A stretch of DNA of 64,000 bases from a virus (lineage: Duplodnaviria > Caudoviricetes). Of this stretch, positions 9,302 through 42,334 are shown piece by piece. The notes under the pieces are model-generated. The model saw nothing but the letters and a program-made list of their open reading frames with translations. It did no database searches and was not told the DNA's origin. The stretch's first letter is position 1. The number at the start of each line of letters is the position of its first letter. Made by a program: the position numbers and the translations under genes. The DNA lies in IMG/VR virus record IMGVR_UViG_3300032225_002102, positions 32,001-96,000 of that record; one strand, 5' to 3'.

Positions 9302-12013
9302 TTATTTAGTTTTATCTCCCATTATTCTTGAGTTAATTCCTGATTGAATTATCTCTCTTTCTTTTAAAGCTACCTTTTGTTGCTCCATTGATAGCTTTTG
9401 TTGGGTTTCTGTTCTTCTATTTTGTTCACGTTCTCTTTCTACATTTAATTTATCTTGTGATAAACCTAATTTAGAAACTTCATTGGATGCTTGAGATTGA
9501 AATTTTTGATATTCTAATGCATCTGGAATTTTATTTAGATCTTGATCTTTGTCTTGTTTGTAACCACTTGAACGAATAAATGCAACTTCTTTTTCTGCTT
9601 CTAATTTTGCATAGAATTGTTCTTGTTGTATTTTAATTCTTTCTTTTTCAATTTCTGTTTTAGCTTGTTCTTGTTGTTGTTGGAATTGTTGAATTTGTTG
9701 TTCACGTTCTGCTGCTTTCTCTTCTTCATATTTTACCACTTCAAGAATACGTTGAGCATTTGTCATTGAACCCATTTCCATTCTACTACTCATTAATGTA
9801 CCAGTAGTATTTAATTCCATTCCTAATTTTTTATACATTTCTAACTTACGTAACTCTTCTTGTGAATTAGTAACATATACATCTAAATCATAAAGTGTAA
9901 GATTCTGATAATTTGTTTTTAATAAACTTTGTGTAAGTATAGAATTTGAAAATTGAGCAGAATAATCTTTGTTGTTTGATTGTAACCATTGTGCTACTTG
10001 TAATTGATAATTAAGTATTTCACTCTCTAATTCGTAAAAATCTGTAAACCAACTTGCAGTTGCATTAAATGATTTAGTAATTGAAACATTAATTCCTGTT
10101 GCTGTATCTGATTGAGAAATATCTCCTAATCTTTCTGGAGTAAATCCTAGTTGAGATAAAGCTAATCCTCTAATTGCAGATGCAATATTTAAATGCTGAA
10201 TAATTCTAGGAGTTGTATCTAAATCAATTACTCTTGGAAATTGTCCTCCACTATTTGCACCAAGTGTATTTGAAGGTGAAGTATCCATCGGAGCAACTCC
10301 AGTAGCATTTCCAGTTTCAATCCACTTAATCAAAGATTCATCTCCTCCCCAATCTTTCTGATTAGGTAAAGTCCGAATATCATGTGCTACAAATGGAAGA
10401 ATACTTCTTTCAAGAATTTTATATGCTTTATTAAGAACTACATTGTATAAAAATTGATAAGGTTTAATTAAATCAACTTGTGATACAGATTTAGTATTTT
10501 TATTATTTGCAATTTGACCAAATATAGGAAGTGATTTAAACATTCCATCTTTACTCTGTGGTTGATACTCACATTTTTTAATATTAAAATAAATACCATG
10601 AGTATTTTGTCCAGTAGTATTATTATTGATTTTAGAACCCTCCATTATAATTGTTTTGTACATCCAAACAATTGTATTTAATTCAGGTTCATTTTGCATA
10701 TTATGATATGGAAGCTCTTTAATATATGAAGGAATAATAAAATCTTCATCTACTTCTAATACTTCAAATAAATCATTAGAAGGATTATTCCAACATAATC
10801 TACCTACTAATTCATAAGATTTCCAATATGCTTTAGTTACTACATATAATCTGTTACCATAAATATTATTATTTTCATAACTTGGTGGGAGTAAAGTACC
10901 ATAACTTAAATGATTCATACCTAAATTAGGTGCTAATCTATTAAGTAAGTTATTTGAAGAAGGTAAAAAAGTATTATATGGATTACCAGAAAAATCTAAA
11001 TAGTTTACAGAATTACCAAAAAAATCAGTTCTAGCTTTACTTTCTTTTAACTCTGTATTACTCATTGTTTCAAACGTAAGTAATTGTTTCTTAGTTAATT
11101 GATGTCCATATTTATCAATTATGAAAGAAGCAGATGCTAATTCTACAGTACCAGCATAATCTCCCTGTTGTACATATTGTATATTAGGAGATTTATGATA
11201 AAATACATTTACATAATTTAAAGGTTTTATTGATAAACCTGTTTTAGTTGTAGTTATTTCTCTAAATCTTCTACCAACAACTAAATAATCTTTAAATTCT
11301 TCTCTACGTAATTTTTTAATATTAAATCTTTCAATTTGTTTCTTTAACTCCTCCTCTGCCCATATTTCAAACTGGTGTCGAGGATTCATTTTCATATACA
11401 TTCCTATCTCTTCTGGAGTTCTTGCTTTCTTCATTTGCTCCATTTGTTGTTGAAATGCTTGTTCTTCCTCCTCTGATTGAAACTCTTCTGGAGTAACAAT
11501 TTGATTTTTTTGTAGATATTCTTGAAATGTTTTTGTAAGTTCTGCTTCAACATACTCATTAAGCATATCTAATTGAACTTGCATTTTATCATTTAAAATT
11601 TGTTCTCCTTTACCTACAACACCAAATGTATCAGGTGCTTGTTCAAATTCACCAACCTGTGTTTCAATAACAGAACGAAACATATCATAATGTTTTACAA
11701 ACTTAGGTAGTTTTCCATCAGCAATTAATTTATTTAAAGGTTCTGAAAAATCTTCTTCATCAGATTCTAAATAATCACTTTCTATAAATTCACCATTAAG
11801 TAATCGTTCATTATCAATAAGCTTTCTATGTTGCATATATTGAAAACGTGCAATGGATTCAAATGTATCCATATTACGTTTCTCCCAATTAGAAACACCA
11901 TTCTCATCTAAATTAGCTCTTTTTTCTTTACGAGATTTCATCTGAGGAGGAAGTGCATTATACATTCCAGCTCTTGTAAAGTTTTCTAAAAAAGGGTGTA
12001 CATCAAGAATCAT
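9302..12013 (-). CDS. Portal protein
   Basis: 903 aa directly after TerL; DLIKPYQ.LYN and GFTPERLG segments; Gln-rich C-terminal coiled coil. Confidence 0.8.
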   Translation of the reverse strand: MILDVHPFLENFTRAGMYNALPPQMKSRKEKRANLDENGVSNWEKRNMDTFESIARFQYMQHRKLIDNERLLNGEFIESDYLESDEEDFSEPLNKLIADGKLPKFVKHYDMFRSVIETQVGEFEQAPDTFGVVGKGEQILNDKMQVQLDMLNEYVEAELTKTFQEYLQKNQIVTPEEFQSEEEEQAFQQQMEQMKKARTPEEIGMYMKMNPRHQFEIWAEEELKKQIERFNIKKLRREEFKDYLVVGRRFREITTTKTGLSIKPLNYVNVFYHKSPNIQYVQQGDYAGTVELASASFIIDKYGHQLTKKQLLTFETMSNTELKESKARTDFFGNSVNYLDFSGNPYNTFLPSSNNLLNRLAPNLGMNHLSYGTLLPPSYENNNIYGNRLYVVTKAYWKSYELVGRLCWNNPSNDLFEVLEVDEDFIIPSYIKELPYHNMQNEPELNTIVWMYKTIIMEGSKINNNTTGQNTHGIYFNIKKCEYQPQSKDGMFKSLPIFGQIANNKNTKSVSQVDLIKPYQFLYNVVLNKAYKILERSILPFVAHDIRTLPNQKDWGGDESLIKWIETGNATGVAPMDTSPSNTLGANSGGQFPRVIDLDTTPRIIQHLNIASAIRGLALSQLGFTPERLGDISQSDTATGINVSITKSFNATASWFTDFYELESEILNYQLQVAQWLQSNNKDYSAQFSNSILTQSLLKTNYQNLTLYDLDVYVTNSQEELRKLEMYKKLGMELNTTGTLMSSRMEMGSMTNAQRILEVVKYEEEKAAEREQQIQQFQQQQEQAKTEIEKERIKIQQEQFYAKLEAEKEVAFIRSSGYKQDKDQDLNKIPDALEYQKFQSQASNEVSKLGLSQDKLNVEREREQNRRTETQQKLSMEQQKVALKEREIIQSGINSRIMGDKTK

Positions 12014-12082
12014 ATTTTTTATTAAAATTTTACTGCAAGATTAATCTTATTTGTTTAAACTTGCAAATTTTAATTTTTTATG

Positions 12083-15000
12083 TTAAATTGCAGATTTCTT
12101 ATAATTACTAAATCCCATACCAAAAGCATTGTTTGTAACTTTAGGTTTTTCTTTAACTTCAACTTTTTCAGATACATTAGGTCTATATTTAGATTCTTTT
12201 TTTAAATGTATTAAAGCATGTAGAAATGCAATTATAGCATCTTTATCAGAATAATCTCCATCAAAATTCATCAATTGTTTTACAAGATATGGATCAGGTA
12301 TTCTCCATAAACCTAATTTACCATCAGGTAATTCTTCTTCACAATAATCAATAATCAATTGTAATCCATAATTTTGTGTTCTAGGAGTAGGTCTTAATCC
12401 TTTACTATTATAAGAATTAGCATTTGGATTTATTTCTCTTGATAAAGTATAAGTATCTTCTAAATAATGAGATTTGTTTTTTTCTGAAAAATGTTGGGTT
12501 AAATTATCATCAGAAGCTTCATGTAATAATGTAATACAACCTGATTCTGCACCATAAAATTCTAATGAGTTTGTAAGAATTTTCCTAAAATGAGATATAT
12601 CCTTTCTACCATTATACCAAGCAACAATTCTATTATTATAAGAATCTGAATAATCAGAAGTTTCTCTCCTCATTATGTAAAAACTACCTAATGATGCAGA
12701 TTCTGCTGTTTTTACTGTATTAAAGGGGTCACTTCCAGCACAATATAACTTTGTACCTCTTAATAATCTAGGTTCATCTACTACACATAATGGAGAATCA
12801 AATAAAGCACTATTATTCTTTTGATATGGATAATCAAATAAAGGAAGTTTAGAAGAATTGTAAGATTTATTTTGTTCATCAAAATCTATTTTTTTAATTT
12901 CAATAGATTCTAAATATTTAAGAAGTTTTTCAAACTCAACTCTAAATGTAGAAAAAGGATTATCTGCTGTTTTAAGAAACATTGAATTTATATCTCGTGG
13001 AAAGAAAATCCTTTGATCATTATAATCAGATAATTTTCCAGTATCGAGTAACAATTTTTCCTCTTTATCTAGTACAATATTAGCATATTCAAAATCAGTA
13101 GCTTCAATTGTAAGTTTATCTAAACAAGAACCTCTTTCTATTTTAATTCCTGTTCTTTCTAAATAATCTACAAATGGAATTTCTTTTTTAAAATCTGCTC
13201 TATACCAACCTCCCATAAACCTACCAACCTTTTTACCTTCATAATCAAATTCAAGTAGTTCATTTGCTTCGGGATTTAAAAAGAAACTTTCAGCATCTTT
13301 AGATAACTCTGCTTCTCCTCCTGTAAAACTAAAAAATCCAGCATTTCTATATCCATATTTACCTTTAAATGCAGGTTTAATAGCATTCCAAGATTGTTTA
13401 AAAGGAAATTTAGCAATCTCATCGTATGCAAAAAAAGACAAAGATTTACCACTACCTACTTGTGCATTATTTCCACCTGCTGTAATATATAGGTATAAAC
13501 GAGCATGAATATTATCTGTATTATCCATTTCTTTATACCCATAACGTATCTCATCTTTTCTCCAATCATTATCTAAAGGTGGAACTATTAAAAATTTTTC
13601 ACCATTATCTGTAGCAATCTTGGATTTTTTACTAAATGTAGATTTATCATTTGAAGAACCAAATAGTAGTAAAGCTTCAGTATTTTTATATAAATTAATC
13701 TCTCTCATTGTAAGAGAAACTAGCGTATCAGTATTGTGAGTAATAGTAAAACCATCAGTTAAAAATAAATGAGATTCATTATTTACTTCAATACAAGTAG
13801 TATAATCGTCATATACATACTCAATATTTTCTATTGAAATTCTATTGTTAAATCTAGAAATACTCTGTCTTTCATATTTTCTTTTTAATTTAAATATAGG
13901 TATATCTGTATATATTTGTAAACCATAACTTAATTTACCTTGTTTTTTTTCACCTTTATAAGTATAACATGATTGTTTTTTAGATATTTTACATCCCATA
14001 CCTAAACTTCTAACTATAAATTCTAAATCTTTAATTAAAGTGTAATTAGAATTAGTAAAAGAAGAACTGCCTTTTGTACATGTACCATCACTATCCATAC
14101 AACCTTTTAAAAATTCCAATCTTTGTTCAAAAGAACCATATTTATAAATATCAGGTACATGTTTGTTTTTAATTAAATTTAATCTTTTTAAATGTTTATT
14201 AAAAATATTATTACCATCTTTAGAAACAATATTATAATGAGAAGCTTTATTATTTCTTAATTTATAATCATATTTAGAAATATTCATATCTAATAATTCT
14301 GCTTGTTGATAAATATAATCTACAATTTCAGAATCCATTGTTGTTATAGCAAATCTTCTTGCATCACCATCACCTGTCCAAATTCCAAATAAATAAGGAT
14401 CAATTGGTAATTCTTTTTCAATATAATTAATAGACTTACATAAATCAATTGAATATCTCCAAGCAAAAGAATTTTTTCTTTTTTCCCAACTTTTTCTATA
14501 ACATTTAAAATCAACTAATAACTCTCTAGTTGTTTTAACTGAATATTTATTTTTATAATGGTCAAAAACATACCAATTATGATCTAATCCACAAAAAAGT
14601 TCTCTACCATCTAACATAGTAATTTTATATACAGGTTTTATTCCTTGTGGATATACACCTATAACTTCTGTTAAATTTCCAGAATCATCAAATATTTTTT
14701 CTCCTATTTTTATTTCTCCTATTGTGGTAGTAGAATCCTCTTTATACAATAAAGAACTATTTAATAAATCCTTACTTATCTGACGAGAACCTGATATACA
14801 ATAATGTTTTTTCTCTTTCTGTGCTCTATAAAAATCATTATGTATAATCCATCCATTATCTCTCAAGTAAGGATTTGCAACAGTTCTTCCTTTAGGAGTA
14901 TCTAATTCAATCTTGTGGAAATTTAAATCATAATATAAAGTTGGAGGAATAAAAACCCCATTTACATTTAATCCCTCATCACATTTCTTAAATTCATTTA

Positions 15001-15118
15001 ATACAAATGCTTCTCTATGAATACTATTTTCAGGTGGTATATCAGACTTTTTTAAATTAATAAAAAATTCAGGAGTTTTTATATTAAAAATTGTACTATC
15101 ATGTTTCAATTGTTTCAT
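12083..15118 (-). CDS. terL: Terminase large subunit containing an intein
   Basis: Walker A GSRQISK|T split by intein, Walker B FAYDEIAK, RNase H-like nuclease AGSDPF and C-terminal DKDAI. Confidence 0.9.
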   Translation of the reverse strand: MKQLKHDSTIFNIKTPEFFINLKKSDIPPENSIHREAFVLNEFKKCDEGLNVNGVFIPPTLYYDLNFHKIELDTPKGRTVANPYLRDNGWIIHNDFYRAQKEKKHYCISGSRQISKDLLNSSLLYKEDSTTTIGEIKIGEKIFDDSGNLTEVIGVYPQGIKPVYKITMLDGRELFCGLDHNWYVFDHYKNKYSVKTTRELLVDFKCYRKSWEKRKNSFAWRYSIDLCKSINYIEKELPIDPYLFGIWTGDGDARRFAITTMDSEIVDYIYQQAELLDMNISKYDYKLRNNKASHYNIVSKDGNNIFNKHLKRLNLIKNKHVPDIYKYGSFEQRLEFLKGCMDSDGTCTKGSSSFTNSNYTLIKDLEFIVRSLGMGCKISKKQSCYTYKGEKKQGKLSYGLQIYTDIPIFKLKRKYERQSISRFNNRISIENIEYVYDDYTTCIEVNNESHLFLTDGFTITHNTDTLVSLTMREINLYKNTEALLLFGSSNDKSTFSKKSKIATDNGEKFLIVPPLDNDWRKDEIRYGYKEMDNTDNIHARLYLYITAGGNNAQVGSGKSLSFFAYDEIAKFPFKQSWNAIKPAFKGKYGYRNAGFFSFTGGEAELSKDAESFFLNPEANELLEFDYEGKKVGRFMGGWYRADFKKEIPFVDYLERTGIKIERGSCLDKLTIEATDFEYANIVLDKEEKLLLDTGKLSDYNDQRIFFPRDINSMFLKTADNPFSTFRVEFEKLLKYLESIEIKKIDFDEQNKSYNSSKLPLFDYPYQKNNSALFDSPLCVVDEPRLLRGTKLYCAGSDPFNTVKTAESASLGSFYIMRRETSDYSDSYNNRIVAWYNGRKDISHFRKILTNSLEFYGAESGCITLLHEASDDNLTQHFSEKNKSHYLEDTYTLSREINPNANSYNSKGLRPTPRTQNYGLQLIIDYCEEELPDGKLGLWRIPDPYLVKQLMNFDGDYSDKDAIIAFLHALIHLKKESKYRPNVSEKVEVKEKPKVTNNAFGMGFSNYKKSAI
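13733..14770 (-). mobile_element. Class 3-type intein (346 aa) with LAGLIDADG endonuclease in TerL
   Basis: Begins DLLNSS after Walker A Lys, ends ITHN|T; HNW, TCIEV; GIWTGDG and LKGCMDSDG motifs. Confidence 0.9.
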
Positions 15119-15683
15119 TTCTTACAAAATTAATTTTTAATCTTTCTGATAATCCTTCTTTACCTTTTACTTGAACTTCTACTGTATTATTCTCTAATTG
15201 ATCAATCATTGGTTTTAATTCAAGTAATATTTTAAATATTCTACTTCTTGTTTTAATTTGAGTTGGAGCATTTGCACAGATAAGTACATCTTCATAAGAT
15301 ACTCCCTTTTTACTCACTTTAGCTACTCTATGATACCTATGTTCTATTTCAGATGCAGGTCTTGCTTCATAATAATTTTTAATATCATTAATTTTTTCTT
15401 TAACTTGTTCTAATGAATATTGAATAAATGTACTATCTCCTTCTATTTGTTTAATAGATTTGAGTTGTTCTACAGTTTCTTTTAATACAACAATAGTAGC
15501 ATCCATCTTTGCTTCGATAGATGCTACTACACTTGCTTTAATTTGTCCTGTAGAACTTGTTATATATTCAATATCATCTGTTAGATTATCTAAATCAAAT
15601 TTATTAGTAGCATCTAAATTGTTACCAATTTCTCGTTTAGAATCCTCAAGATTTAAACTTTTATAACTGTTCTTCTTTGCCAT
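15099..15683 (-). CDS. Possible terminase small subunit
   Basis: Helical 194 aa overlapping terL start; positional inference only. Confidence 0.35.
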   Translation of the reverse strand: MAKKNSYKSLNLEDSKREIGNNLDATNKFDLDNLTDDIEYITSSTGQIKASVVASIEAKMDATIVVLKETVEQLKSIKQIEGDSTFIQYSLEQVKEKINDIKNYYEARPASEIEHRYHRVAKVSKKGVSYEDVLICANAPTQIKTRSRIFKILLELKPMIDQLENNTVEVQVKGKEGLSERLKINFVRNETIET

Positions 15684-16695: not shown

Positions 16696-17027
16696 CCTTT
16701 CATTCTTTTATGTTTGAATTTTAAATTGTACTCTGTGATAAATCCTCTAAGTTTTTCGTATTTTTTAATTTTTTTAATAATTTTAACACGTTGCTTTACA
16801 TCAGTTTCTTTTTCTAATAATTGATTTGCTTTTATTTGTCTTGCTATAACAGGAGATAAATTAACACAAAATACTCCTAATCCTGGATAATTAAGAAATT
16901 GCCAATCTATATTGTATAAATTAAACATTAAATACTCATCAATGAATTGATTATACATTTCCATTGATTGATTATCTGTTAAATTATACTTCTCTCCTAT
17001 TCGTTTAACAATATCTTTCTCAAGCAT
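16692..17027 (-). CDS. HU/IHF-like DNA-binding protein
   Basis: Two N-terminal helices then PGLGVF turn typical of HU/IHF fold. Confidence 0.55.
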   Translation of the reverse strand: MLEKDIVKRIGEKYNLTDNQSMEMYNQFIDEYLMFNLYNIDWQFLNYPGLGVFCVNLSPVIARQIKANQLLEKETDVKQRVKIIKKIKKYEKLRGFITEYNLKFKHKRMKG

Positions 17028-17370
17028 TTTTAACTAAACATTTAATCATAAAAATCAACTCATTATCTTGAATCTTTAAACTATTAAATGGTTCTATTAC
17101 CTCCCATTTCTTACTCGCAGTTTTAATAATGAGTTTTTTATTAACTAATGAAGATTTAGCATTATCAATTATTTGCTTATCCTTTACTAATTTATTATCT
17201 AAAATAAATTGATAAGTTTCATCTTTAATACCTTGAATACAAAAGTAAGTTAAAACTAAAAATTCTTGATTTCTTAATTTTATGTTATTTAATAAACAAT
17301 GTATTTTAATATATTTATCCCACAATGAATAAATAGAAGGATAAACATATACCTTCTTATACGGATTCAT
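17020..17370 (-). CDS. Putative winged-helix DNA-binding protein
   Basis: IDNAKSSLVNKKLIIK helix-wing pattern. Confidence 0.4.
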   Translation of the reverse strand: MNPYKKVYVYPSIYSLWDKYIKIHCLLNNIKLRNQEFLVLTYFCIQGIKDETYQFILDNKLVKDKQIIDNAKSSLVNKKLIIKTASKKWEVIEPFNSLKIQDNELIFMIKCLVKNA

Positions 17371-17752
17371 GTGTTAGTTTTTTATAAGTGTTTAAAAATA
17401 AATCCCACTCTTCTTCAGAACTAAAATACATTCCACCAACTCTTTCGATTGTACCAAATGAGTTAGCATTTGCTTTATTTAAACAAAGTGTTTTGTATTC
17501 TTTTCTTGTAATTTTTGTAGCTGGGTTAGAATAATCTTCAGGAAGAATATTTAAGAAAGAATGAATAGTAAGAAGTTTACTTACAAGTGTAAGTTCTTTT
17601 TGAAACCTTTCAACTGTTTTAGGATTGTTATGAGCAATATTATCTACTTTCTTTCTATCAATAGATAAAGATTTATCAAAATACTTGAGATTCTTAATCT
17701 TTTGAAGTAATTGTTTTTCAGAAATCATTTTATAAGTGATATGTTTCTGCAA
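17357..17752 (-). CDS. Hypothetical protein (likely start 17728)
   Basis: ORF; TATATTTG promoter at 17750-17757 overlaps the track start. Confidence 0.5.
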   Translation of the reverse strand: MQKHITYKMISEKQLLQKIKNLKYFDKSLSIDRKKVDNIAHNNPKTVERFQKELTLVSKLLTIHSFLNILPEDYSNPATKITRKEYKTLCLNKANANSFGTIERVGGMYFSSEEEWDLFLNTYKKLTHESV

Positions 17753-17809
17753 ATATAATAATAAATAAAATTAAAAAACAAGTTTTTAATAAAATATTTT
17801 AAAAAATAA

Positions 17810-17840
17810 AAAACTCACCTCTATTAAAAGTGAGTTTCTT
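17810..17840 (-). terminator. Intrinsic terminator
   Basis: aaactcac/gtgagttt stem with T-tract on minus strand. Confidence 0.55.
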
Positions 17841-17850
17841 TATTATTTGT

Positions 17851-18612
17851 TTAGAATGTTTTCTGAGTACCACTGAAGCATCTGTTTTTAAATTTTTTTT
17901 TTAATTGTCGCTCTTTTCTTTTTTCTAAAAATAAATACATTAAATTATTTTTTCTTAATCTACTATAAAGTGTACCTCTATCTATATTTAATAAATTAGA
18001 ACACTCAATTACATTTTTACTTTTATTAATTGCTTCTAATAATTTATCTAAAGGAATATCAATATATCTTTTGGATTCAAAAGTACTTCCTTGTGTATAT
18101 ATAAATAAACATTGTTTTCCACAAAAATGCAATCCCATTTTATTATACTTTAAAATTCTTATTCTTTTATTAAATAATTTTTTACAAGAAAAGCATTGAA
18201 CTTCAATTCTTTCAGCTATCAACTCTCTTACTCTTTTTTTCTGGGATTCACTTTGATTTTTTCTTTGTTCTAGTGTCCATTTTGCACCTAAACCAGTTTC
18301 TCCACCTATTGTTAAATTATAACCTTTTTTATAAGTGTTGTGTAATTTTATATATTTTATTTCTAAATTGCTTAGTATAAATTTTACTTCAGTTTTATTT
18401 TCATTAATTTCAAAAGAATCTAAAATTGTTAATTTAAAATTTTCTATCCCATTATATTTAATAATTGCATTATAAAATTTTCTACCTATAGAGTTTTTCT
18501 TTTTCCTTTTATAAATAGAAAATCTTGCTTTAAAATCTATAGATTGTCCAATATAACTTTTACCCGAAGGAGAAGTAAACATGTAAATTACTGCTAAATT
18601 TTTATACTCCAT
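17851..18612 (-). CDS. GIY-YIG homing endonuclease
   Basis: VIYMFTSPSGKSYIGQS...R, GYNLT.GG, C-terminal HTH. Confidence 0.85.
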   Translation of the reverse strand: MEYKNLAVIYMFTSPSGKSYIGQSIDFKARFSIYKRKKKNSIGRKFYNAIIKYNGIENFKLTILDSFEINENKTEVKFILSNLEIKYIKLHNTYKKGYNLTIGGETGLGAKWTLEQRKNQSESQKKRVRELIAERIEVQCFSCKKLFNKRIRILKYNKMGLHFCGKQCLFIYTQGSTFESKRYIDIPLDKLLEAINKSKNVIECSNLLNIDRGTLYSRLRKNNLMYLFLEKRKERQLKKKFKNRCFSGTQKTF

Positions 18613-19540
18613 TAGTTAAATTATTTTTATAATATAATAACATATCTATTATTTCTTTTTTCATATAAGGGACTTCATAAGTTTTACTATTTGTTTGTTT
18701 ATAAATTTCATCACCAATTTCTTGCAAATCAAACCATTCAAATTCAATAAAATCAACTTCATATCCAAACTGTTCTAACATATAACCATATAAACTTAAT
18801 TGTAAAAAATAATGTATTTTATTACAATCTTCTAAATGAGAAATAGGATTTTTCATTTTTTGATATTGATTACCCTCTTTTATCTCAATATTAGTTTTCC
18901 AATCTCGAATAATTACTTTACGATTTTCTAAAACTATTATCTGATCTGCTGTTCCTGCTAATCTAAATTCTGGTAATATAAGTTTTAATTCTACATGAGT
19001 ACCTGGTTCAAGATTATACCAATCAATGTTAGAATGTTGTGGAATTACAGGGTACTCTTTACCATTAAAGTTAAATAACTTATCTTTAAACTGTTTATCT
19101 TCTTTAGCTAGATGAAATGCACTACCTTTTCTTGTACTTTTCTTATTCCCCTCTACCCAATTATTCTTAATTAATTTACATACCCTAAGAATCTCATCTT
19201 GTTCTCTATAAGAAAACACATTTATAAATAATTTATCATCTTTATTACATTGAGATAATCCATATCTTTGATATTGTTTGTATTCACTTTCAGAAAAAAT
19301 TACATTCCCAATTAAATCATTTAACTCACTATTGTATTTTTTAATCTTAGCTGGTTTATCTATATCTGATAAATATTGAAGTGATTTATAAATTAACCAA
19401 AATTGTTCTTGATCTTCAAAGTGATTATAAAAATGTCCTAAGAATTGTGTAGCTGATTCATATCTTAATCCTTCTTTATTTGTATATGTATGTGTGGGTT
19501 CACAGAAGAATAATTCTTCCTTTAAAAATAATGATTTCAT
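18602..19540 (-). CDS. PD-(D/E)XK exonuclease
   Basis: HTY, G..FH, E...LAGTAD...DWKT, QLSLY motifs. Confidence 0.8.
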   Translation of the reverse strand: MKSLFLKEELFFCEPTHTYTNKEGLRYESATQFLGHFYNHFEDQEQFWLIYKSLQYLSDIDKPAKIKKYNSELNDLIGNVIFSESEYKQYQRYGLSQCNKDDKLFINVFSYREQDEILRVCKLIKNNWVEGNKKSTRKGSAFHLAKEDKQFKDKLFNFNGKEYPVIPQHSNIDWYNLEPGTHVELKLILPEFRLAGTADQIIVLENRKVIIRDWKTNIEIKEGNQYQKMKNPISHLEDCNKIHYFLQLSLYGYMLEQFGYEVDFIEFEWFDLQEIGDEIYKQTNSKTYEVPYMKKEIIDMLLYYKNNLTNGV

Positions 19541-19542
19541 AA

Positions 19543-19794
19543 TTAATTAAAAAATTGTGAGTTTAAACTAAATTTATTTTTCTTACTTGTAGCAAATAAA
19601 ACTTTACTATCTAATAACCCCCCTACTGCTTTCTTAAACGTGTTAAGAGAAACCTTTACATCTTCAGTATATTGTTTATGTGTTATTTCAATCACATCTT
19701 CTTGTGGAGTTTGTAATTGAATCCATATTAATAAATTTTTACTAGATTGAGTGAGATTCAATAACTCATCTTTTTTATTTAAATTTAATTTCAT
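19543..19794 (-). CDS. Small RepL-like winged-helix protein
   Basis: TFKKAVGGLLDSKVL...FSLNS pattern parallels the 22906 gene. Confidence 0.45.
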   Translation of the reverse strand: MKLNLNKKDELLNLTQSSKNLLIWIQLQTPQEDVIEITHKQYTEDVKVSLNTFKKAVGGLLDSKVLFATSKKNKFSLNSQFFN

Positions 19795-19814
19795 TCTTTA
19801 AATATTTAGTTTTA

Positions 19815-19845
19815 CAAAGATATGTCAAATTTTGATAGAAACAAA
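19815..19845 (-). promoter_or_regulatory. Bacteroidota primary-sigma promoter
   Basis: TATCTTTG (-7) at 19815-19822 and TTTG (-33) at 19842-19845 on minus strand. Confidence 0.7.
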
Positions 19846-19972
19846 TCTATTTGAAAATATTTACTTTTTACTAGATAAAGTTAAATTATTTAGTAATATA
19901 TCAATACCCTGTATGTTTAGAGTTTAAAATTAATACCCCCTATATATAAAAAGAGAGATTATTCTTCCTCTC

Positions 19973-20593
19973 TTATAAAATATTTTGTTTCCATTGTAAA
20001 TTTTCTATATTTATATTTTTAGAATTATTGTCCAAATAACACACCGTAAAATAATTATTGTGTTTAATAAAATTAAATGCTCTCAATACTTCTTTTGCAA
20101 CATTAACTCTTTTATACGAACCATTTTTATACAAATTACAAGTTACATAATTCTCTTTATTATTAAATCCTTTATATAATTTTTTACTAGATTCAATTTC
20201 AACAATATTTCCTAAATTAGAAATTATATATCTTTCTTCATATCCATAAACAGGTAAAAATATTTCATCCTCTAAAGGAGTATAAAAAATAGATTTAAAA
20301 TTCTTTGTTTCTTTTTTTATTTTTGGAAATGGTTTATCTACCCAATATAAATTAGAAACTTCATTATTTAATTTATTACCATCTAATCTTTTAACCCATT
20401 TATTTCCCATATTTTCAACAGGATTAAAAACTTCTAATACTACTCTATGTACTAAATAATCCTTTGATTTAACCTTAAAAGATTGATACCCTGCTTTAGA
20501 TGTTTTTAAATTTAGTACCCCTCCACTTGGATTTTTAACATTACCCAAATTTGATACTTGATAACCACCCTTAAATTCTTTAAAAATTTCCAT
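19973..20593 (-). CDS. Tandem NUMOD4/HNH-like endonuclease (degenerate)
   Basis: Two YxxSNLGN units, VHRVV..VF, DGNKLNN..SNL.W; HNH His residues partly lost; TACATTTG promoter at 20620-20627. Confidence 0.75.
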   Translation of the reverse strand: MEIFKEFKGGYQVSNLGNVKNPSGGVLNLKTSKAGYQSFKVKSKDYLVHRVVLEVFNPVENMGNKWVKRLDGNKLNNEVSNLYWVDKPFPKIKKETKNFKSIFYTPLEDEIFLPVYGYEERYIISNLGNIVEIESSKKLYKGFNNKENYVTCNLYKNGSYKRVNVAKEVLRAFNFIKHNNYFTVCYLDNNSKNINIENLQWKQNIL

Positions 20594-20787
20594 TGTTATT
20601 ATTGTTTAAATTAATAATACAAATGTAATACTAATTTACGGGAATAATAACTGCTATTATAAATATTTAATATAAGTGTGTGAGTAGAGTAGGATTGTAT
20701 TTGTTCCCCATACAAACTGATACTCCGTTGGTACTCCGCTACCTTCGAAGTAAATTTACCATTTTAAACTTTTAAACAATTAATACA

Positions 20788-21303
20788 ATGGCATTAGTTA
20801 CAGTTAAATACCTTGGTTCTACCTCAACAGGTAGATACCATAAGTACGAAGTGATACCAACAATCACACCAGCAAAACCTGCTTCAGGAGCAGGTGCTAC
20901 AGAAGTAGAAGCTACTCCTGAAATAGTAAACACTCACGTAGCAGAACTTACTGCTGACGGTGTTGAAATGAACAAGAATCTCGGAGTTACGGGATTCCTT
21001 TCGCAAACACATCTTCACACAACTCCAAAGGTTGGAGATACTGTAGAAGCGGACGTTCGTGCATTCGTAAAGAATGCTACTACAACAGTAAACTTCTTCC
21101 ACGGTATTGACCGTGCAAAGCAAGAAGCTTTTGCTTCTGCAAATAGGTTAAATCGTGAATTTGCGGAAGTTGCAAGCTTTGCGAAAAAGCTTGAGGAGTT
21201 CGATATTAGTGCAAATGATATCAAAGCATTCGAAGAGATTAAGCTCCTTAAGGAACGCAGAAAACTCATCACAGCACAGTTGAAAGGGTTAGATGATAAC
21301 TGA
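20788..21303 (+). CDS. First gene of plus-strand block, hypothetical
   Basis: Clear ORF with visibly higher GC and a strong terminator. Confidence 0.7.
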   Translation: MALVTVKYLGSTSTGRYHKYEVIPTITPAKPASGAGATEVEATPEIVNTHVAELTADGVEMNKNLGVTGFLSQTHLHTTPKVGDTVEADVRAFVKNATTTVNFFHGIDRAKQEAFASANRLNREFAEVASFAKKLEEFDISANDIKAFEEIKLLKERRKLITAQLKGLDDN

Positions 21304-21312
21304 CCCTTTGGG

Positions 21313-21343
21313 AAGAGCGGAGTGAAAAACTCCGCTTTTTTTT
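21313..21343 (+). terminator. Strong intrinsic terminator
   Basis: agcggagt-gaaaa-actccgct followed by T run. Confidence 0.85.
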
Positions 21344-21421
21344 AGAATTGGAAGCATTTAGTGATTTGCTTTCGCATTCTTTCAAAATCGGAAGCATTTA
21401 GTGATTTGCTTACGCTTTTGA
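21344..21421 (+). repeat. Two tandem 26-nt repeats (40-nt period), each forming a hairpin
   Basis: ggaagcatttagtgatttgcttWcgc at 21350-21375 and 21390-21415. Confidence 0.9.
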
Positions 21422-21462
21422 TTTATTTGTTTTGTTTAAATAATTAATTAAATAAATAAAAA

Positions 21463-21624
21463 ATGGAAAAAATAACAATGATTGAACTTGAAAACCATGT
21501 TAATAAATGGTTTGGTTCTGATTGGAACAACCAATCATCAGCACAGATTTTAGCAATGACGATAGATTTGCTTGAAAAAGTTGATGTTGAAGTTGTTTCA
21601 GAAAAACATTTCAAAGAGGTGTAA
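21463..21624 (+). CDS. Small hypothetical protein (53 aa, not in ORF track)
   Basis: MEKITMIELENHVNKWFG...; A-rich start context; hairpin terminator at stop. Confidence 0.6.
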   Translation: MEKITMIELENHVNKWFGSDWNNQSSAQILAMTIDLLEKVDVEVVSEKHFKEV

Positions 21625-21957
21625 CAACCTCTTTTCTTTTAATGCTTCATTGTTGTTTCACAAGGACAACCTATCTAAGATAGAAAGCAGAGTGGAAGAA
21701 AGAGATGCAACACTCTTTAATTTGTTGTTTTAATTATAAACCTTTCTCATGTAACATGGCTGGATTTATTATTAGTGGGGTTATTGTATCTGTTGAGGAT
21801 ACGAGAGATTATGATTTTAAATAGCGGTTATCCCATTTTTTAAAATTGTATACCACAAGGATTGATTCTCCTTGATAAAGAAAAGAATTACAGGGGAAGA
21901 TAGAATCCTGTATAATGTAACTATCGTATTGTTTTTTTATTCTAAATCATATAAAAA

Positions 21958-22206
21958 ATGACAAAGAAAAAAGAAAGAGGTTCATTCAACCTATCTTTAT
22001 CCACAGTTAGGAGAAAGAAAAGGTTGGATTCTTACTTTGCTTTTACACAGCAGAGAGAAGAGGAAGCAGAATATGCTTATTCTTACTTTCGTGGTTTGTT
22101 AAAAGCTAACGTAAGAATAGGTTGTGGTTGTGGTTGCGGAGGAGATAGTGTAAACGAGAGTTTATATTACCTTGGAGCAAGCATATATCGCACTCTAAAC
22201 GATTGA
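21958..22206 (+). CDS. Small basic protein with GCGCGCGGD motif
   Basis: ORF with A-rich start context. Confidence 0.55.
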   Translation: MTKKKERGSFNLSLSTVRRKKRLDSYFAFTQQREEEAEYAYSYFRGLLKANVRIGCGCGCGGDSVNESLYYLGASIYRTLND

Positions 22207-22310
22207 AGTTTCTCCCTTAAAAATTGGAGATAAGATTCGGAGTTTAACTGTACTTGGCAACAGAAACAGTTACTTTTATTTTTTATTTTATCTTTAAACA
22301 AAAAAAAACA

Positions 22311-22673
22311 ATGTTGAAAATTAATTTATCTGGTCATTTTAATAAAAATCTTGCAGAGAAAGGTTTTACCTTTCCTGGAACTGTTCAGATTAATCCTGAG
22401 AAATCTTTTCAGGATAATTTAGAAGCAGTAACTAAATTCTTACAAGGATTAGGTGTTGTTTCTGATAGCAATGTAACTATTGCTCTTCCTGGAATGAGTG
22501 TGTTAGCTACTATGGTTACAGTAGCATTACATGGTTTGACAGGACAATTTCCAGAAATTGCTCCTTTGTTTAGAAATGAAAATGGAGATTTTGTGTGTGT
22601 GGAAACAATAGATTTACAAACAATGAGGAATCATGTTTGTAGAAATCTACGTGAAAGCATTATAGAATTATAG
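22311..22673 (+). CDS. csx15: Csx15-like (CRISPR type III-associated) protein
   Basis: INLSGH...ALPG...ALHGLTGQFP...F...ETIDLQTMR..R matches recalled Csx15 pattern; ATG at 22311 preferred over TTG at 22254. Confidence 0.7.
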   Translation: MLKINLSGHFNKNLAEKGFTFPGTVQINPEKSFQDNLEAVTKFLQGLGVVSDSNVTIALPGMSVLATMVTVALHGLTGQFPEIAPLFRNENGDFVCVETIDLQTMRNHVCRNLRESIIEL

Positions 22674-22905
22674 GTTAAAGTGGTAAATGATAATAAAGTA
22701 GGGATATTATTTCTCTACTTTTATTTTCTTTTTACCTGAATATGAAGATTAGGTAAATTTCTTATATATGCAAAGGATGTTTTGGATTTATGTAGATGTA
22801 CATAAGAAAAATAGTTCCGAGAAGTTAATCAGACTACTTGCATTAAGTTATATAAGAATAAAAGAAGTAGATTAGTTCTACTTCTTTTTACCTAATTATG
22901 AAGAT

Positions 22906-23358
22906 TTAATTAGTTAAATATTTTATAGATTCTTCTTCTACAATATTAAAACTTTCTATTTGCTTTCCTTCAATGATTGCATCAATTAAAGTTTTTCTAT
23001 CTACTTGTGATTCTCTCCAAACAGTTAAAGGATTTAATTGATATTGTCCTTTTGCTAATTTAACAACAAGTTTAGAATGACATAATCTATCAATACATTT
23101 ATAAAATGTTTGCTCGTTAAAATTTTTACCTATATCTTCTTGTATTTGAGTTTGTAATAATTTGTTTGTGTTAAACACATTTAACTTATTACTATTTTTA
23201 GATAAGTATAAAAAAATTTGCATATCTAATAACGAAGATAACTTTTTAGTTAAATCTAAAACATTGTCATACAATTGTGTGTAATTATCTTCAATTTCAA
23301 TGTAACCTTTCTTTTGAGTAGTTACAATCTCTTCTGTTTTAAAATAAAATCTGCTCAT
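22906..23358 (-). CDS. repL: RepL-like winged-helix replication/regulatory protein
   Basis: IFLYL...TFYKCIDRL...LVVK...GQYQLNP..W; TATATTTG promoter at 23383-23390 favours ATG at 23358. Confidence 0.65.
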   Translation of the reverse strand: MSRFYFKTEEIVTTQKKGYIEIEDNYTQLYDNVLDLTKKLSSLLDMQIFLYLSKNSNKLNVFNTNKLLQTQIQEDIGKNFNEQTFYKCIDRLCHSKLVVKLAKGQYQLNPLTVWRESQVDRKTLIDAIIEGKQIESFNIVEEESIKYLTN

Positions 23359-23478
23359 TTGAAATTTGTTTAAATTATAATACAAATATACTATTTTAAA
23401 TCTACAATAACTAATCAATACTATACTAAAATAATTAATATTTTATTAGGAATTGTAAATTATTTTATTATGAGAGAT

Positions 23479-23541
23479 ACTATACCTACAGGATAGTACA
23501 ACTATACCTACAGGATAGTGACACTATACCTACAGGATAGT
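23479..23541. repeat. Three perfect 19-bp palindromic direct repeats at 22-bp period (iteron/operator-like)
   Basis: actatacctacaggatagt at 23479, 23501 and 23523. Confidence 0.95.
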
Positions 23542-23675
23542 AGGATTTGATTAAAAATAGCTTAAAATGCTTATAATCAACGTTTTATATAATTTTAGTT
23601 GTTATAACTCTTTCTACTGTAGGTGATTAGCCTATCTGTGTACTGATTTGCATATATTTTGAACAGCAATTACAT

Positions 23676-23730
23676 TTTCTATATATAGTTATTTTACTAT
23701 ACTGATGAGTTCTTAAGAACGAAATAGAAA
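23676..23730 (+). ncRNA. Type III hammerhead ribozyme
   Basis: Stem III tttctat/atagaaa, cleavage triplet AUA (after 23683), stem I tatagt/actata, CUGAUGA, stem II gttc/gaac, GAAA. Confidence 0.88.
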
Positions 23731-23759: not shown

Positions 23760-24092
23760 ATGCAAAAATTAAATTTAAAAACAAATGTACAATTGAATGG
23801 TAAAGTACTTTATACTACTTTGAACCTTTCAATTGGAGTGCATCACTTATGCAGTGTAACATTACATAATGCTGATGTAAAAAGTATTGAATTTCGTTTA
23901 TCTTTACCTAAAGCATGTGGAGAAAATGTAATGGAATATGTATATTTTACTGATAATTTGGAATTACAAGGATTAAGTTCTTTCCATATCTACCAGTTAT
24001 ATAAAGAATCAGTTGCAAGATACTGGAAAACATCTCCTTACAAAGAGGTAATGAAAAATTATCATTTAAGTAAAGCTAATAAATATGCTTAA
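23760..24092 (+). CDS. Hypothetical protein downstream of hammerhead
   Basis: ORF track. Confidence 0.6.
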   Translation: MQKLNLKTNVQLNGKVLYTTLNLSIGVHHLCSVTLHNADVKSIEFRLSLPKACGENVMEYVYFTDNLELQGLSSFHIYQLYKESVARYWKTSPYKEVMKNYHLSKANKYA

Positions 24093-30290: not shown

Positions 30291-31229
30291 ATGAAATATA
30301 GTAGAAAAGAACATTTAATTAGTGGAATTTATGCAATTATTAATCAAGTTAATGGTAAAATGTATATTGGAAAATCTAAAAATATTTACAATAGAACAAA
30401 TACTCATATAACTGGATTAAATACTAAAAATAAGAATGAAAATAGATATTTAATTAATAGTTGGCATAAATATGGAAAAGAAAATTTTAAATTAATTGTG
30501 TTAGAAGAATTAGAGTTAAATGAAGAATTAATTGCAGAAAGAGAACTTTATTGGATAAATTTTCATAATACCACTAATTCTAAATATGGATATAATTTGA
30601 GAATGGATTCTTCTACTAATACTATTGTCCACCAAGATACAATAGAGTTGATGAAAGAATCACATGCTATAAGAGTTTTAAATATGACAGAAGAACAAAG
30701 AAAAAAATGTGGGAATATTTCAAGAGAATTTTGGAAAAATAATCCAGAAAAAAAAGTTGAAATGGTTAAAAAAGTAAGAGAACAAATTCAAAAATATTCT
30801 ATTGTTCAATTTACAAAAGAAATGGAATTTATTAAAGAATATGGTGGTAGATATGATATTGTAAAAAATTATCCACTTTTATATGTTCAAGCAATTTTAG
30901 CTGTATGTAATGGAAATAAAGCTTCATATCAAGGATATATTTGGAGATATAAAGATTTAAAAACAAAAGAAATAGTATATCAAAAATCGCTTGAAGAAAG
31001 AAAAGAAAACATTTCTATAAGAAAATCAAGTAAAAAATCTTTTATAGTTAAAGATAACCAAATAAAAGAATATAACACTTTATCTCAATTATGTAAAGAA
31101 AATAATTTAGTTATTAACAATATTCATAAAAAACTAAGTAAGAATGGTATTGTAAAATTAAAAAACAAAAATATTTGGATCTTTTATGATAAAAATTTAT
31201 TTGAAAAATCTCAATTAACATTATTTTAA
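30291..31229 (+). CDS. GIY-YIG homing endonuclease
   Basis: GIYAI...MYIGKS...R, GYNLR, NUMOD1-like C-terminus; TATATTTG promoter at 30259-30266. Confidence 0.85.
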   Translation: MKYSRKEHLISGIYAIINQVNGKMYIGKSKNIYNRTNTHITGLNTKNKNENRYLINSWHKYGKENFKLIVLEELELNEELIAERELYWINFHNTTNSKYGYNLRMDSSTNTIVHQDTIELMKESHAIRVLNMTEEQRKKCGNISREFWKNNPEKKVEMVKKVREQIQKYSIVQFTKEMEFIKEYGGRYDIVKNYPLLYVQAILAVCNGNKASYQGYIWRYKDLKTKEIVYQKSLEERKENISIRKSSKKSFIVKDNQIKEYNTLSQLCKENNLVINNIHKKLSKNGIVKLKNKNIWIFYDKNLFEKSQLTLF

Positions 31230-32449: not shown

Positions 32450-33148
32450 ATGAGTTTAGATACAAATAAAAACATTGTTTCTTTAGTAGGATGGTATGGA
32501 GGAGATCGTGCGATAGCGAGAGCTGCTTGGACTTCAACTCAAATTGATGTTGATTTAAAATCGGATGAACAAATTGAAAATTTACTAGTAAATAAACTTT
32601 GGAATAATTCAAGTGGTAAACCACATAAAACACCATTTGAAAGAGGTATAGTAGAGTTTAATATTACATGTGACCAAGCATCTCATATTCATTTACTTAA
32701 ACATAGATTAGCAAATATTAACGGAGAATCTGCAAGATATAAGGAATTAAAAGAAGATAAATTTTACATTCCAGAAGATTTTTATAACTTAGAAACTAAT
32801 ACAAGTATCTTAAATAAATATAATAAATACAATTGGGGTGATTTATTAGAATCTAAAACTATAGAAATGAATGAATTATATCACGAATGTTTAAAAGATG
32901 CTACTGAACAATTAAATAAAAAAAGAGCAAAAGAATCTGCAAGATATTTTAAAACAATGAACAGTCAATTAACTCTTTCTGTAATGATGAATATGAGTTG
33001 TTTTTACAATTTTTATTCATTAAGAGCAGATTCATCCGCACAAATAGAAATTCAAAATATTGCACAAGACATGCTTAATTGTATTAAAAACATTGAAGGT
33101 AATCCTTTTAAAAATACTTTATCTGCTTTTGTTTATGAGAACAGTTAA
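32450..33148 (+). CDS. thyX: FAD-dependent thymidylate synthase
   Basis: H.TPFE, KHR-x7-SARY variant ThyX motif, LR....AQ.EI. Confidence 0.88.
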   Translation: MSLDTNKNIVSLVGWYGGDRAIARAAWTSTQIDVDLKSDEQIENLLVNKLWNNSSGKPHKTPFERGIVEFNITCDQASHIHLLKHRLANINGESARYKELKEDKFYIPEDFYNLETNTSILNKYNKYNWGDLLESKTIEMNELYHECLKDATEQLNKKRAKESARYFKTMNSQLTLSVMMNMSCFYNFYSLRADSSAQIEIQNIAQDMLNCIKNIEGNPFKNTLSAFVYENS

Positions 33149-40459: not shown

Positions 40460-42334
40460 ATGCAGTTAAGAAAAGCAACAAGACAAGCAGCAAAATTAAA
40501 AATTGGTTTTAGTGCAGTATCGGGTGCAGGTAAAGCACAACCACTTTATTCTAAAGTTTTAACAGATTTAGGGTTTGTTGAAATGAAAGATATAGTTGTT
40601 GGAACAAATGTTTTTACAGCTAATGGTACTTTAACAAAAATAGTAAATGTTTTTCCACAAGGAAAGAAAAAGATTTGGGAATTTACTTTAAGTGATAATA
40701 CTAAAGTTCAATCTTGTGAAGAACATTTATGGAAAACAAGTACTATTTCAGAAAGAGTTAATAATTTAAATAAAGAAGGTAGTATTAAAACTACTTTAGA
40801 AATAGTTAATTCTTTAAAAAAAGGAAAAAAAGCAAATCATTTTATAGAATTATGTAATCCAATCCAATTTAATAAAAAAGAGTTTATTATTTCTCCTTAT
40901 ATAATGGGAGTGCTTTTAGGAGATGGTTGTTTTAGATCAGAAAGTCTTTTTTTCACTTCAATAGATACTGAAATAGCTACTAATGTTAGTAGTTTATTAC
41001 CTACAGGATTACAATTAAAAAAAAGAGGGATTAATTATGTAATTTCAAGAGAATTATTGAATGAATCTAATAATAGAAATCCTTTTATTGAAGAACTAAG
41101 ATTTTTAAATTTAATGAGCAAGAGTTCATTTGATAAATTCATTCCTTCTGATTATCTTCATAGTTCTATAGAAGATAGAATTGAGCTTTTACAAGGTTTA
41201 ATTGATACAGATGGTTCAGTTTCTAATGATGGAGAAGTAGAATATACAACTACTTCTTATCAATTAAAAGAAGATATTAAATTTTTAGTTGAATCATTAG
41301 GTGGATATTGTTCAAGTATAAAAGAAAGAAAAACTAAGTATATCTACAAAGAAGAGGTTAAAGAAGGAAAATTATCTTACAGATTAAAAATTATTCTTCC
41401 AAATACAATAACTCCTTGTAAATTAAAAAGAAAATTAAATAAAGTTTCTTCCTATACTAAATATTTTCCAATTAGAAATATAGTTGAAGCTGTTTATATT
41501 GGAGAAATAGAAGCTCAATGTATAGAAGTAGAAGATAATTCTCATTTGTATATTACAGATAATTTTATTGTTACTCATAATACTTATGGAGCTTTATTAG
41601 TAGCTCATGGATTAGTAGGAGATTGGAGTAAAATTGCAGTAATTGATACAGAAAATGGTTCTGCTGATTTATATTCTCATTTAGGAGATTATAATGTACT
41701 TACTTTAAATTCATTTGCTCCAGAAAAATACATTGAAGCTATTACTGCTTGTGAAAAAGCAGGAATGGAATTAGTTATTATTGATTCTATTACACACGAA
41801 TGGGATTTCTTATTACAAGTTCATTCTAAAATGGAAGGTAATTCTTATACAAATTGGAATAAAATTACTCCAAGACATGATGCATTTAAAAATAAAATTC
41901 TACAATCTCCATGTCATATATTTACTACAGTTAGGAGAAAAACAGAATATGAAATGCAAAATGTAGCAGGACGTACTTCTATTGTTAAACTTGGTACTAA
42001 AGAAGAAACTCGTTCTGGTTTTGAGTATGAATTAACAATTAATTTTGAAATTAACGAATCTCATTTAGCAAAAGCAGGAAAAGATAGAACAGGATTATTT
42101 GTTAACAGAGATGAATTTCAATTAAATGAAGAAGTAGGAGAAGAATTAAAAGATTGGTGTAATTCAGGAAATTCTGATTCAGAAACTTCACTTCAAATTG
42201 GATTAGTTGATATTAATAATTCATCTTCTCTTGCAGAATTAAGTAATGTATTTAGTAAACATACTTCTTTACAATTGAATCCTGTATTTAAAGAAGCTGC
42301 CTCAGCTAAAAAGAAAGAATTTATTAAAGAATAA
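40460..42334 (+). CDS. AAA ATPase (AAA_24/Sak4-like) with intein
   Basis: SGAGK|T Walker A, VIDTE, IIDSITHEW, KDRT. Confidence 0.85.
   Translation: MQLRKATRQAAKLKIGFSAVSGAGKAQPLYSKVLTDLGFVEMKDIVVGTNVFTANGTLTKIVNVFPQGKKKIWEFTLSDNTKVQSCEEHLWKTSTISERVNNLNKEGSIKTTLEIVNSLKKGKKANHFIELCNPIQFNKKEFIISPYIMGVLLGDGCFRSESLFFTSIDTEIATNVSSLLPTGLQLKKRGINYVISRELLNESNNRNPFIEELRFLNLMSKSSFDKFIPSDYLHSSIEDRIELLQGLIDTDGSVSNDGEVEYTTTSYQLKEDIKFLVESLGGYCSSIKERKTKYIYKEEVKEGKLSYRLKIILPNTITPCKLKRKLNKVSSYTKYFPIRNIVEAVYIGEIEAQCIEVEDNSHLYITDNFIVTHNTYGALLVAHGLVGDWSKIAVIDTENGSADLYSHLGDYNVLTLNSFAPEKYIEAITACEKAGMELVIIDSITHEWDFLLQVHSKMEGNSYTNWNKITPRHDAFKNKILQSPCHIFTTVRRKTEYEMQNVAGRTSIVKLGTKEETRSGFEYELTINFEINESHLAKAGKDRTGLFVNRDEFQLNEEVGEELKDWCNSGNSDSETSLQIGLVDINNSSSLAELSNVFSKHTSLQLNPVFKEAASAKKKEFIKE
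40535..41581 (+). mobile_element. Class 3-type intein (349 aa) with LAGLIDADG endonuclease
   Basis: AQPLYSKV start, HLW, QCIEV, VTHN|T; GVLLGDG and LQGLIDTDG. Confidence 0.92.

Follow-up and report, generated by a model that had tools for sequence, protein, structure and literature searches.

What might a phage gain from carrying a lone csx15 gene, far from any CRISPR locus? The question is raised by a 64,000-nt stretch of DNA (the window), which comprises bases 32001–96000 of a 129,291-bp IMG/VR virus record with an estimated completeness of 87% and a GC content of 25.7%. The original prediction, made from the DNA itself, had recognized a 120-aa Csx15 homologue in the window and had interpreted it as a captured host off-switch that degrades or sequesters cyclic oligoadenylate (cOA) signals. 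Hoikkala et al. found 0 Csx15 in 28,114 cultured phage genomes, and Chi et al. read the absence from cultured phages as a sign that Csx15 is perhaps useless as an anti-CRISPR. Klimavicius et al. (28 October 2026, bioRxiv 10.64898/2026.10.26.761840) described a single homologue from an archaeal virus, together with over 20 viral Csx15 sequences from metagenomes. They tentatively named viral Csx15 AcrIII-3; all of these proteins are candidates, and none was assayed (bioRxiv 10.64898/2026.10.26.761840). In a literature search we found no other paper using that name. The idea of viral Csx15 as an anti-CRISPR is already published as a hypothesis and is not new. Our additions are that the active-site residues are intact, that the gene resides in large phages in which no tyrosine integrase was found rather than in prophages, and that there is evidence of conservation and mosaic transfer.

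We found the predicted 120-aa ORF in place, and all elements of its motif string were there: N5-L-S-G-H9, L59-P-G61, L73-H-G-L-T-G-Q-F-P81 and E98-T-I-D-L-Q-T-M-R106. The ATG start was preferred over an upstream TTG because 11 homologues have their conserved N-termini close to the ATG, no more than a few residues away; the TTG start, which homologues do not support, was rejected. Against the NCBIfam equivalog model NF040560 (CAS_Csx15) the protein scored 45.4 bits (E = 8e-12; curated cut-off 35), and a six-frame search of the whole record with the same model gave 44.6 bits. The homology read from the motifs was thus borne out by a profile match above the curated cut-off. In a PDB-wide phmmer search the sole matches were two Csx15 entries, 9tet_A (E = 3e-4) and 9teu_A, and a profile built from 12 close homologues matched these entries at 1.5e-5 and 6e-4, respectively. 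Neither Pfam nor PHROGs contained a significant family for the protein. Its AF2 model has a pLDDT of 87 and consists of alternating strands and helices. These comparisons indicate that the motif resemblance to Csx15 is not due to chance, and that this large phage encodes a genuine member of the Csx15 family, as a stand-alone protein.

Residue correspondences were taken from HMMER alignments to the two structures, which were assigned to PfCsx15 (9tet) and CliCsx15 (9teu) by histidine spacing, with a 7-residue tag offset in each. S7-G8-H9 aligns with the SGH of both proteins, placing H9 opposite Cli H13, Pf H11 and Ha H8, and S7 opposite Pf S9. LHGLTGQFP aligns with LHGLLGHFP and LHGRLGHFP, with H74 corresponding to Cli H90 and Pf H82, while F94 aligns with Cli Y113 and Pf F106, and R106/R111/R114 with Cli R125/R129/R132. 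By way of these Cli arginines, and not by direct alignment to HaCsx15, the three phage arginines are taken to match the R118/R122/R125 triad of HaCsx15. According to the 2026 Csx15 preprints, the alanine mutants Ha H8A and Cli H13A lose cleavage and Pf H11A loses binding, Cli Y113 and Pf F106 stack on adenine, and Ha R118/R122/R125 contact ligand phosphates, Ha R125 being catalytic.

All seven positions (S7, H9, H74, F94, R106, R111 and R114) are invariant among the 12 closest sequences. Across the wider family they are kept in 36–40 of the 41 members of the clade to which the phage protein belongs, and in 65–71 of 71 other family members. H9, which is also invariant in alignments A1 and A2, is found in 40 of 41 and 69 of 71 sequences, H74 in 36 of 41 and 65 of 71, and F94 and the arginine triad in 38–39 of 41 and 65–71 of 71. 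The sole difference among the mapped residues is a spacing of 5 residues between R106 and R111, as opposed to 4 in the cellular proteins. Judged from these alignments, every residue tied to cA4 binding or cleavage by the two 2026 preprints is retained, and the active site looks catalytically intact.

On balance, we give slightly better than even weight to the reading that phage Csx15 is a cOA-depleting anti-type III factor, probably a catalytic one. We infer an anti-CRISPR effect, ligand binding, filament formation, catalysis and early expression for the phage protein along the following lines. By analogy with CliCsx15, HaCsx15 and CsCsx15 it would dimerize, and on binding cyclic tetra-adenylate (cA4) made by host Cas10 the dimers would stack head to tail. 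Each cA4 would lie between the 'head' (S7, H9) of one dimer and the 'tail' (H74, F94, R106, R111, R114) of the next, where H9 and R114 from adjacent dimers would form a composite active site that cuts the cA4 ring. With cA4 removed, cA4-activated CARF/SAVED effectors would stay off and the phage would escape type III CRISPR signalling immunity.

The characterized relatives bear on this proposal in different ways. CliCsx15, from Chlorobaculum limnaeum, is likewise a single-domain protein and is alignable over residues 5–115; it is a cA4 ring nuclease that neutralizes cA4-dependent plasmid immunity in E. coli (bioRxiv 10.64898/2026.01.21.700848). It differs from the phage protein in that its gene lies in a type III-A CRISPR locus, it has ~12 more residues and the similarity is weak (profile E = 6e-4). 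HaCsx15 and CsCsx15, members of the same family, are active ring nucleases (bioRxiv 10.64898/2026.10.26.761840) with a filament-dependent composite active site, and H8 and R118/R122/R125 have counterparts in the phage protein. Unlike the latter they are cellular, acting in cis or in trans on type III systems, and their specificity is broad (cA3 to cA6 and CBASS trinucleotides).

Such breadth bears on an alternative in which the phage protein acts mainly against CBASS or as a broad-spectrum nuclease for cyclic oligonucleotides, directed at cA3, cAAG, other CBASS-type signals or several pathways. Cleavage by HaCsx15 and CsCsx15 extends from cA3 to cA6 and to 3'3'3'-cAAG and 2'3'3'-cAAA, and the authors of that study raise the possibility for viral homologues (bioRxiv 10.64898/2026.10.26.761840); Csx15 is also structurally close to SAVED, a CBASS sensor domain. 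Nonetheless, cellular Csx15 is linked strongly to Cas10 and weakly to CBASS, CliCsx15 and PfCsx15 are cA4-specific, and CBASS signals are processed much more slowly than cA4. We regard a predominantly anti-CBASS role as improbable.

PfCsx15, from Pseudomonas fluorescens, is the top PDB sequence match and has S9/H11, H82 and the arginine triad conserved. Like the phage protein it is an orphan with no link to a CRISPR locus; it differs in being the product of a cellular gene and a cA4 sponge with negligible nuclease activity. Phage Csx15 could similarly be a non-catalytic sponge that polymerizes round cA4. The conserved residues serve binding as well as catalysis, and phages are well known to deploy sponges against cyclic-nucleotide defences. 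Since PfCsx15 barely cleaves despite sharing the S-G-H, LHG and arginine residues, sequence does not separate an enzyme from a sponge. Type III systems produce much cOA, however, which argues against pure sponging, and PfCsx15 falls in a small outlier cluster of the Csx15 family; we consider a sponge possible, though unlikely. The essential inactivity of PfCsx15 as a nuclease does count against the catalytic reading, as do the 5-residue R106–R111 spacing and the slow turnover of the characterized Csx15 enzymes, on account of which both groups argued that they are poorly suited to viruses.

The genes around csx15 are those of a phage. Portal (PHROG E = 1e-79), large terminase and major head protein are encoded on the minus strand, and the plus strand from ~20.8 kb carries a replication and nucleotide-metabolism block with ThyX, an SNF2-type helicase, an AAA_24 ATPase, a Toprim primase, DUF932, UDG and a lysozyme. 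As had been predicted, cas genes and arrays are missing: the window has no CRISPR-like spaced repeats, and the 129-kb record encodes no Csm1- or Cmr2-type Cas10 and no Cas1. This absence is expected because the copy is viral, and it has no bearing on protein-family membership. A phage-borne CRISPR accessory gene was rejected, since cas genes and arrays are absent. AcrIII-1 (DUF1874, PF08960, STIV_B116-like) is absent across the whole record, and the csx15 product itself does not match it. No tyrosine integrase was found in the record and no tRNA in the window's phage, which is apparently virulent.

Several other features of the record were recorded in passing (Table 1). The large terminase is unusually long, and its PHROG match spans residues 102–488 only. 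The AAA_24 ATPase contains a LAGLIDADG-like insert that may be an intein, and free-standing genes for GIY-YIG and HNH homing endonucleases are dispersed around the strand switch. Five giant ORFs lie on the minus strand of the record outside the window, and PHROGs gave no match for any of the three longest; giant virion proteins are a feature of crAss-like phages.

Distant relatives of the portal occur in Leptolyngbya phage Lbo-JY46, the nearest isolate (34% identity), in crAss-like phages (21–27%) and in Cellulophaga phages phi17:2 and phi4:1 (24%). The GenBank phage collection gave neither a DNA match nor a protein match, and no cultured relative is known in that collection. A Shine-Dalgarno-like 4-mer precedes 3 of 110 genes, compared with 10% of random windows, and positions −12 to −14 and −3 upstream of the record's genes are A-rich. 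Such a Shine-Dalgarno-poor, A-rich upstream signature is typical of Bacteroidota, and from this translation-initiation signature the host may be Bacteroidota-like.

Comparison with related phages addressed whether csx15 is useful to its carriers. Close homologues of the protein (60–88% identity) are all metagenomic. One is encoded at the same position on a 130.6-kb contig (L002), and close csx15 genes are also present on the IMG/VR contigs G1 (136 kb) and G2 (91.5 kb, complete, with direct terminal repeats). In 4 of 4 phages (window, L002, G1 and G2) csx15 and an exonuclease gene lie 2–3.5 kb apart, on opposite sides of the strand switch. Between the window phage and G1, Csx15 ranks first in conservation among 41 shared ORFs, with 71% identity; ThyX reaches 69%, the terminase 48%, the portal 37% and the major head protein 27%. 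It also ranks first among the 19 ORFs shared with G2 (70%; any other full-length match ≤36%), a phage in which no homologue of the portal or head protein was detectable. Among the other proteins shared with G1, only ThyX (PF02511) is conserved to about the same degree as Csx15.

Selection and exchange are both evident at the DNA level. Nei-Gojobori dN/dS values for csx15 against three phage orthologues were 0.14–0.19 in distant pairs, which are saturated, and 0.03 for G1 versus G2; csx15 is under purifying selection. G1 and G2 have DNA in common only as scattered patches of up to ~1 kb, and the patch that bears csx15 measures 947 bp with 92.6% identity. The gene is horizontally mobile among phages. 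Because it is both under purifying selection and exchanged between unlike phages, we infer from this pattern a useful accessory gene, for example one for counter-defence.

A role outside counter-defence would make Csx15 either the phage's own nucleotide-sensing or regulatory module or a passenger gene without benefit. A quarter of cellular Csx15 genes are in genomes without type III CRISPR, Csx15 domains act as sensors in fusion proteins such as Cash, and for phage Csx15 we identified neither an effector partner nor a host system. A mere passenger, on the other hand, would neither outrank all other proteins of diverged phages in conservation nor have a dN/dS of 0.03–0.19. The genes flanking csx15 differ between phages, and none is a conserved neighbour able to serve as effector; moreover, the ligand-binding and catalytic residues are all retained. 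A role of this kind appears to us a long shot.

The csx15 gene lies ~1.5 kb inside the rightward block, just beyond the strand switch and the cumulative GC skew minimum. Features of this region and of the record are collected in Table 1.

Table 1. Positions of csx15 and of other features of the window, the full record and related phages. Coordinates refer to the window unless a contig or the record is named.
Feature	Position	Strand	Remarks
csx15, stand-alone viral Csx15-family protein	22311–22673	+	ATG-started ORF, 120 aa plus stop
Upstream TTG start	22254		Rejected
Terminator-like hairpin	21613–21634		Precedes csx15 unit
Promoter-like site	21887–21916		
82-aa ORF	21958–22206	+	Upstream of csx15, between terminator-like site 21613–21634 and csx15
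alpha_tmRNA match	22157–22274		Treated as noise
Terminator-like hairpin and T-run	22695–22731	+	22 nt past csx15 stop; 10-pair stem then TATTTTCTTT
~95-nt conserved element	22762–22855	+	90 nt downstream of csx15
Copies of ~95-nt element	L007:11495–11588; L008:11618–11711		
170-aa ORF	22906–23418	−	
Three tandem 22-nt repeats	23473–23542		Imperfect palindrome (CTATACCTACAGGATAG)
Type III hammerhead ribozyme match (RF00008)	23676–23730	+	Core CUGAUGAG ... CGAAA
ORF downstream of hammerhead match	23760–24092		
ORF before 40-nt repeats	20788–21303		
Two tandem 40-nt repeats	21333–21412		
Twister-P1-like matches	L008:12635–12697; L007:13265–13351	+	
tRNA-Met(CAT) genes	L002:9368–9441; L007:11640–11714		Near csx15
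Large terminase	12083–15118	−	1011 aa
GIY-YIG/HNH homing endonuclease genes	17851–18612; 19973–20593; 30291–31229	−; −; +	Free-standing
ThyX (PF02511)	32450–33148	+	
AAA_24 ATPase	40460–42334	+	LAGLIDADG-like insert
Giant ORFs (record coordinates)	112212–122885; 122887–129147; 105642–110483; 16927–22122; 10184–15301	−	3557, 2086, 1613, 1731 and 1705 aa; outside window

The hairpin that follows csx15 has a folding energy of −14.2 kcal/mol (z = −3.2), and 0 of 200 shuffled sequences fold as well. Terminator-like sites are enriched in the csx15 region, with 7 observed versus 0.9 expected in a consensus scan. The 82-aa ORF, which has no Pfam family and no tblastn match in L002, L007 or L008, is possibly co-transcribed with csx15, although its membership of the unit is uncertain. 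One promoter-like site was found upstream, and such sites occur no more often in this region than in shuffled DNA. Enrichment was seen neither for the Bacteroidota promoter pattern TTTG-N17-21-TAnnTTTG (4 found versus 5.6 expected) nor for sigma-70-like sites, and no convincing csx15 promoter was found. Early expression of csx15 is suggested by gene position alone. An alpha_tmRNA match overlapping the region scored 20 bits, compared with a gathering score of 50, and was treated as noise.

Beyond the csx15 terminator-like hairpin the region contains several repeated or RNA-like elements. The ~95-nt conserved element sits between two convergent terminator-like hairpins. It is 80–81% identical between the window and G1 or G2 and 99% identical over 121 nt between G1 and G2, a conservation that exceeds that of almost every protein common to these phages. 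The fold predicted by RNAalifold is a three-way junction in which 7 pair changes are compensatory, and the plus strand is indicated by several G-U pairs. The element is single-copy, gave no match in Rfam, is missing from L002 and, within IMG/VR, is confined to these contigs; in G1 it lies ~50 nt upstream of a tRNA-Met gene. It may be an unknown structured RNA.

The type III hammerhead match (44.6 bits, E = 1e-7) narrowly missed the gathering score of 48.5. It has a full core and three AT-rich stems, and lies 30 nt upstream of an ORF. Twister-P1-like matches of 58.9 bits in L008 and 40.3 bits in L007, both under the gathering score of 67.2, were found in the same early region of these related phages, 2.3–3 kb downstream of csx15. 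Self-cleaving RNAs seem to be a feature of the csx15 early region. The three 22-nt repeats are located in a divergent intergenic region upstream of the 170-aa ORF, and with their imperfect palindrome they look like an operator array. The 40-nt repeats follow another ORF.

To place the phage protein within its family, a profile search was carried out against 1.84 billion representative proteins, yielding 143 matches at E ≤ 1e-3 and 31 at E ≤ 1e-10. NF040560 was matched by 33 of 33 closer relatives (clade members) tested. A tree of 112 single-domain matches was built with MAFFT and FastTree with SH-like support, the 120-aa alignment giving limited resolution. In this tree the window protein falls in a 41-sequence clade (support 0.96) that is phage-rich and comprises at least 31 clusters at 50% identity. 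Phage-like contexts account for 8 of the 9 examined in the clade, window included. They show long runs of small unannotated ORFs alongside PIF1 helicase, ThyX, homing endonucleases, DUF5675 or peptidase; cas genes were absent from all eight. The ninth context is a cyanobacterial MAG contig in which csx15 adjoins a RAMP-like protein. Homologues are present on six further IMG/VR contigs, namely G1, G2 and four more with clade members. A pattern-limited scan with alignment A1 found no close cellular copy in representative genomes of 185,579 prokaryote species, and a viral-contig scan with alignment A7 found none; alignment A2, with its 33 sequences, proved too diverse to scan loci with. The clade of the window protein is predominantly viral.

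Outside the clade, one match comes from the early region of a temperate phage, which also encodes an integrase and cI-like repressors, and another lies near RT-Cas1 and Cas2 in a Hydrogenedentes MAG. Because the temperate-phage match falls outside the clade while phage-like contexts occur inside it, Csx15 appears to have entered viruses at least twice. The original prediction of a captured host off-switch fits the tree, in which the phage-rich clade lies within a cellular family and has one CRISPR-linked cyanobacterial member nested inside it. The tree gives no direction of transfer.

Among proteins of viruses that act on cOA signalling, AcrIII-1 (DUF1874/STIV B116-like) has a fold unrelated to Csx15. 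AcrIII-2 (viral SAVED, PDB 9r8s) is a 235-aa double-domain protein, whereas phage Csx15 is a single 120-aa domain and would need dimerization to mimic one SAVED unit. A further precedent is vCsx15, or 'AcrIII-3', represented by URC17498 of Lokiarchaeota virus Skoll and by over 20 viral sequences from metagenomes, which embodies the same concept of a stand-alone viral Csx15 proposed as an anti-CRISPR. The window contig may be among the metagenomic viral sequences seen by the preprint's authors. In their account viral Csx15 is rare and mostly found in prophage regions; here it is encoded by a ~130-kb phage in which no tyrosine integrase was found, and belongs to a phage-rich clade.

Of the two groups that studied Csx15 in 2026, one judged it absent from phages and the other rare, and both considered it rather ill suited to them. 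The phage copy described here contrasts with that view. It is likely to be useful because it is intact, is the best-conserved gene common to diverged phages of 90–136 kb, and lies on an exchanged mosaic patch. Extending the preferred reading further, we tentatively suggest, with low confidence, that csx15 is a mobile counter-defence cassette of large virulent phages with Shine-Dalgarno-poor, Bacteroidota-like hosts, and that it is efficient and possibly broad-spectrum against type III CRISPR and CBASS. In the same speculative extension, some cellular Csx15 proteins, such as the nested cyanobacterial member, would be virus-derived, as proposed for AcrIII-1/Crn2.

Both type III CRISPR and CBASS rely on cyclic-oligonucleotide signals, and phages that destroy such signals reveal which defences are relevant in nature. 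The protein described here is a short (120 aa), well-modelled 'AcrIII-3' candidate with predicted active-site residues H9, H74 and R114. If active, it would represent a third family of viral ring nuclease and a possible tool to switch off cA4 signalling.
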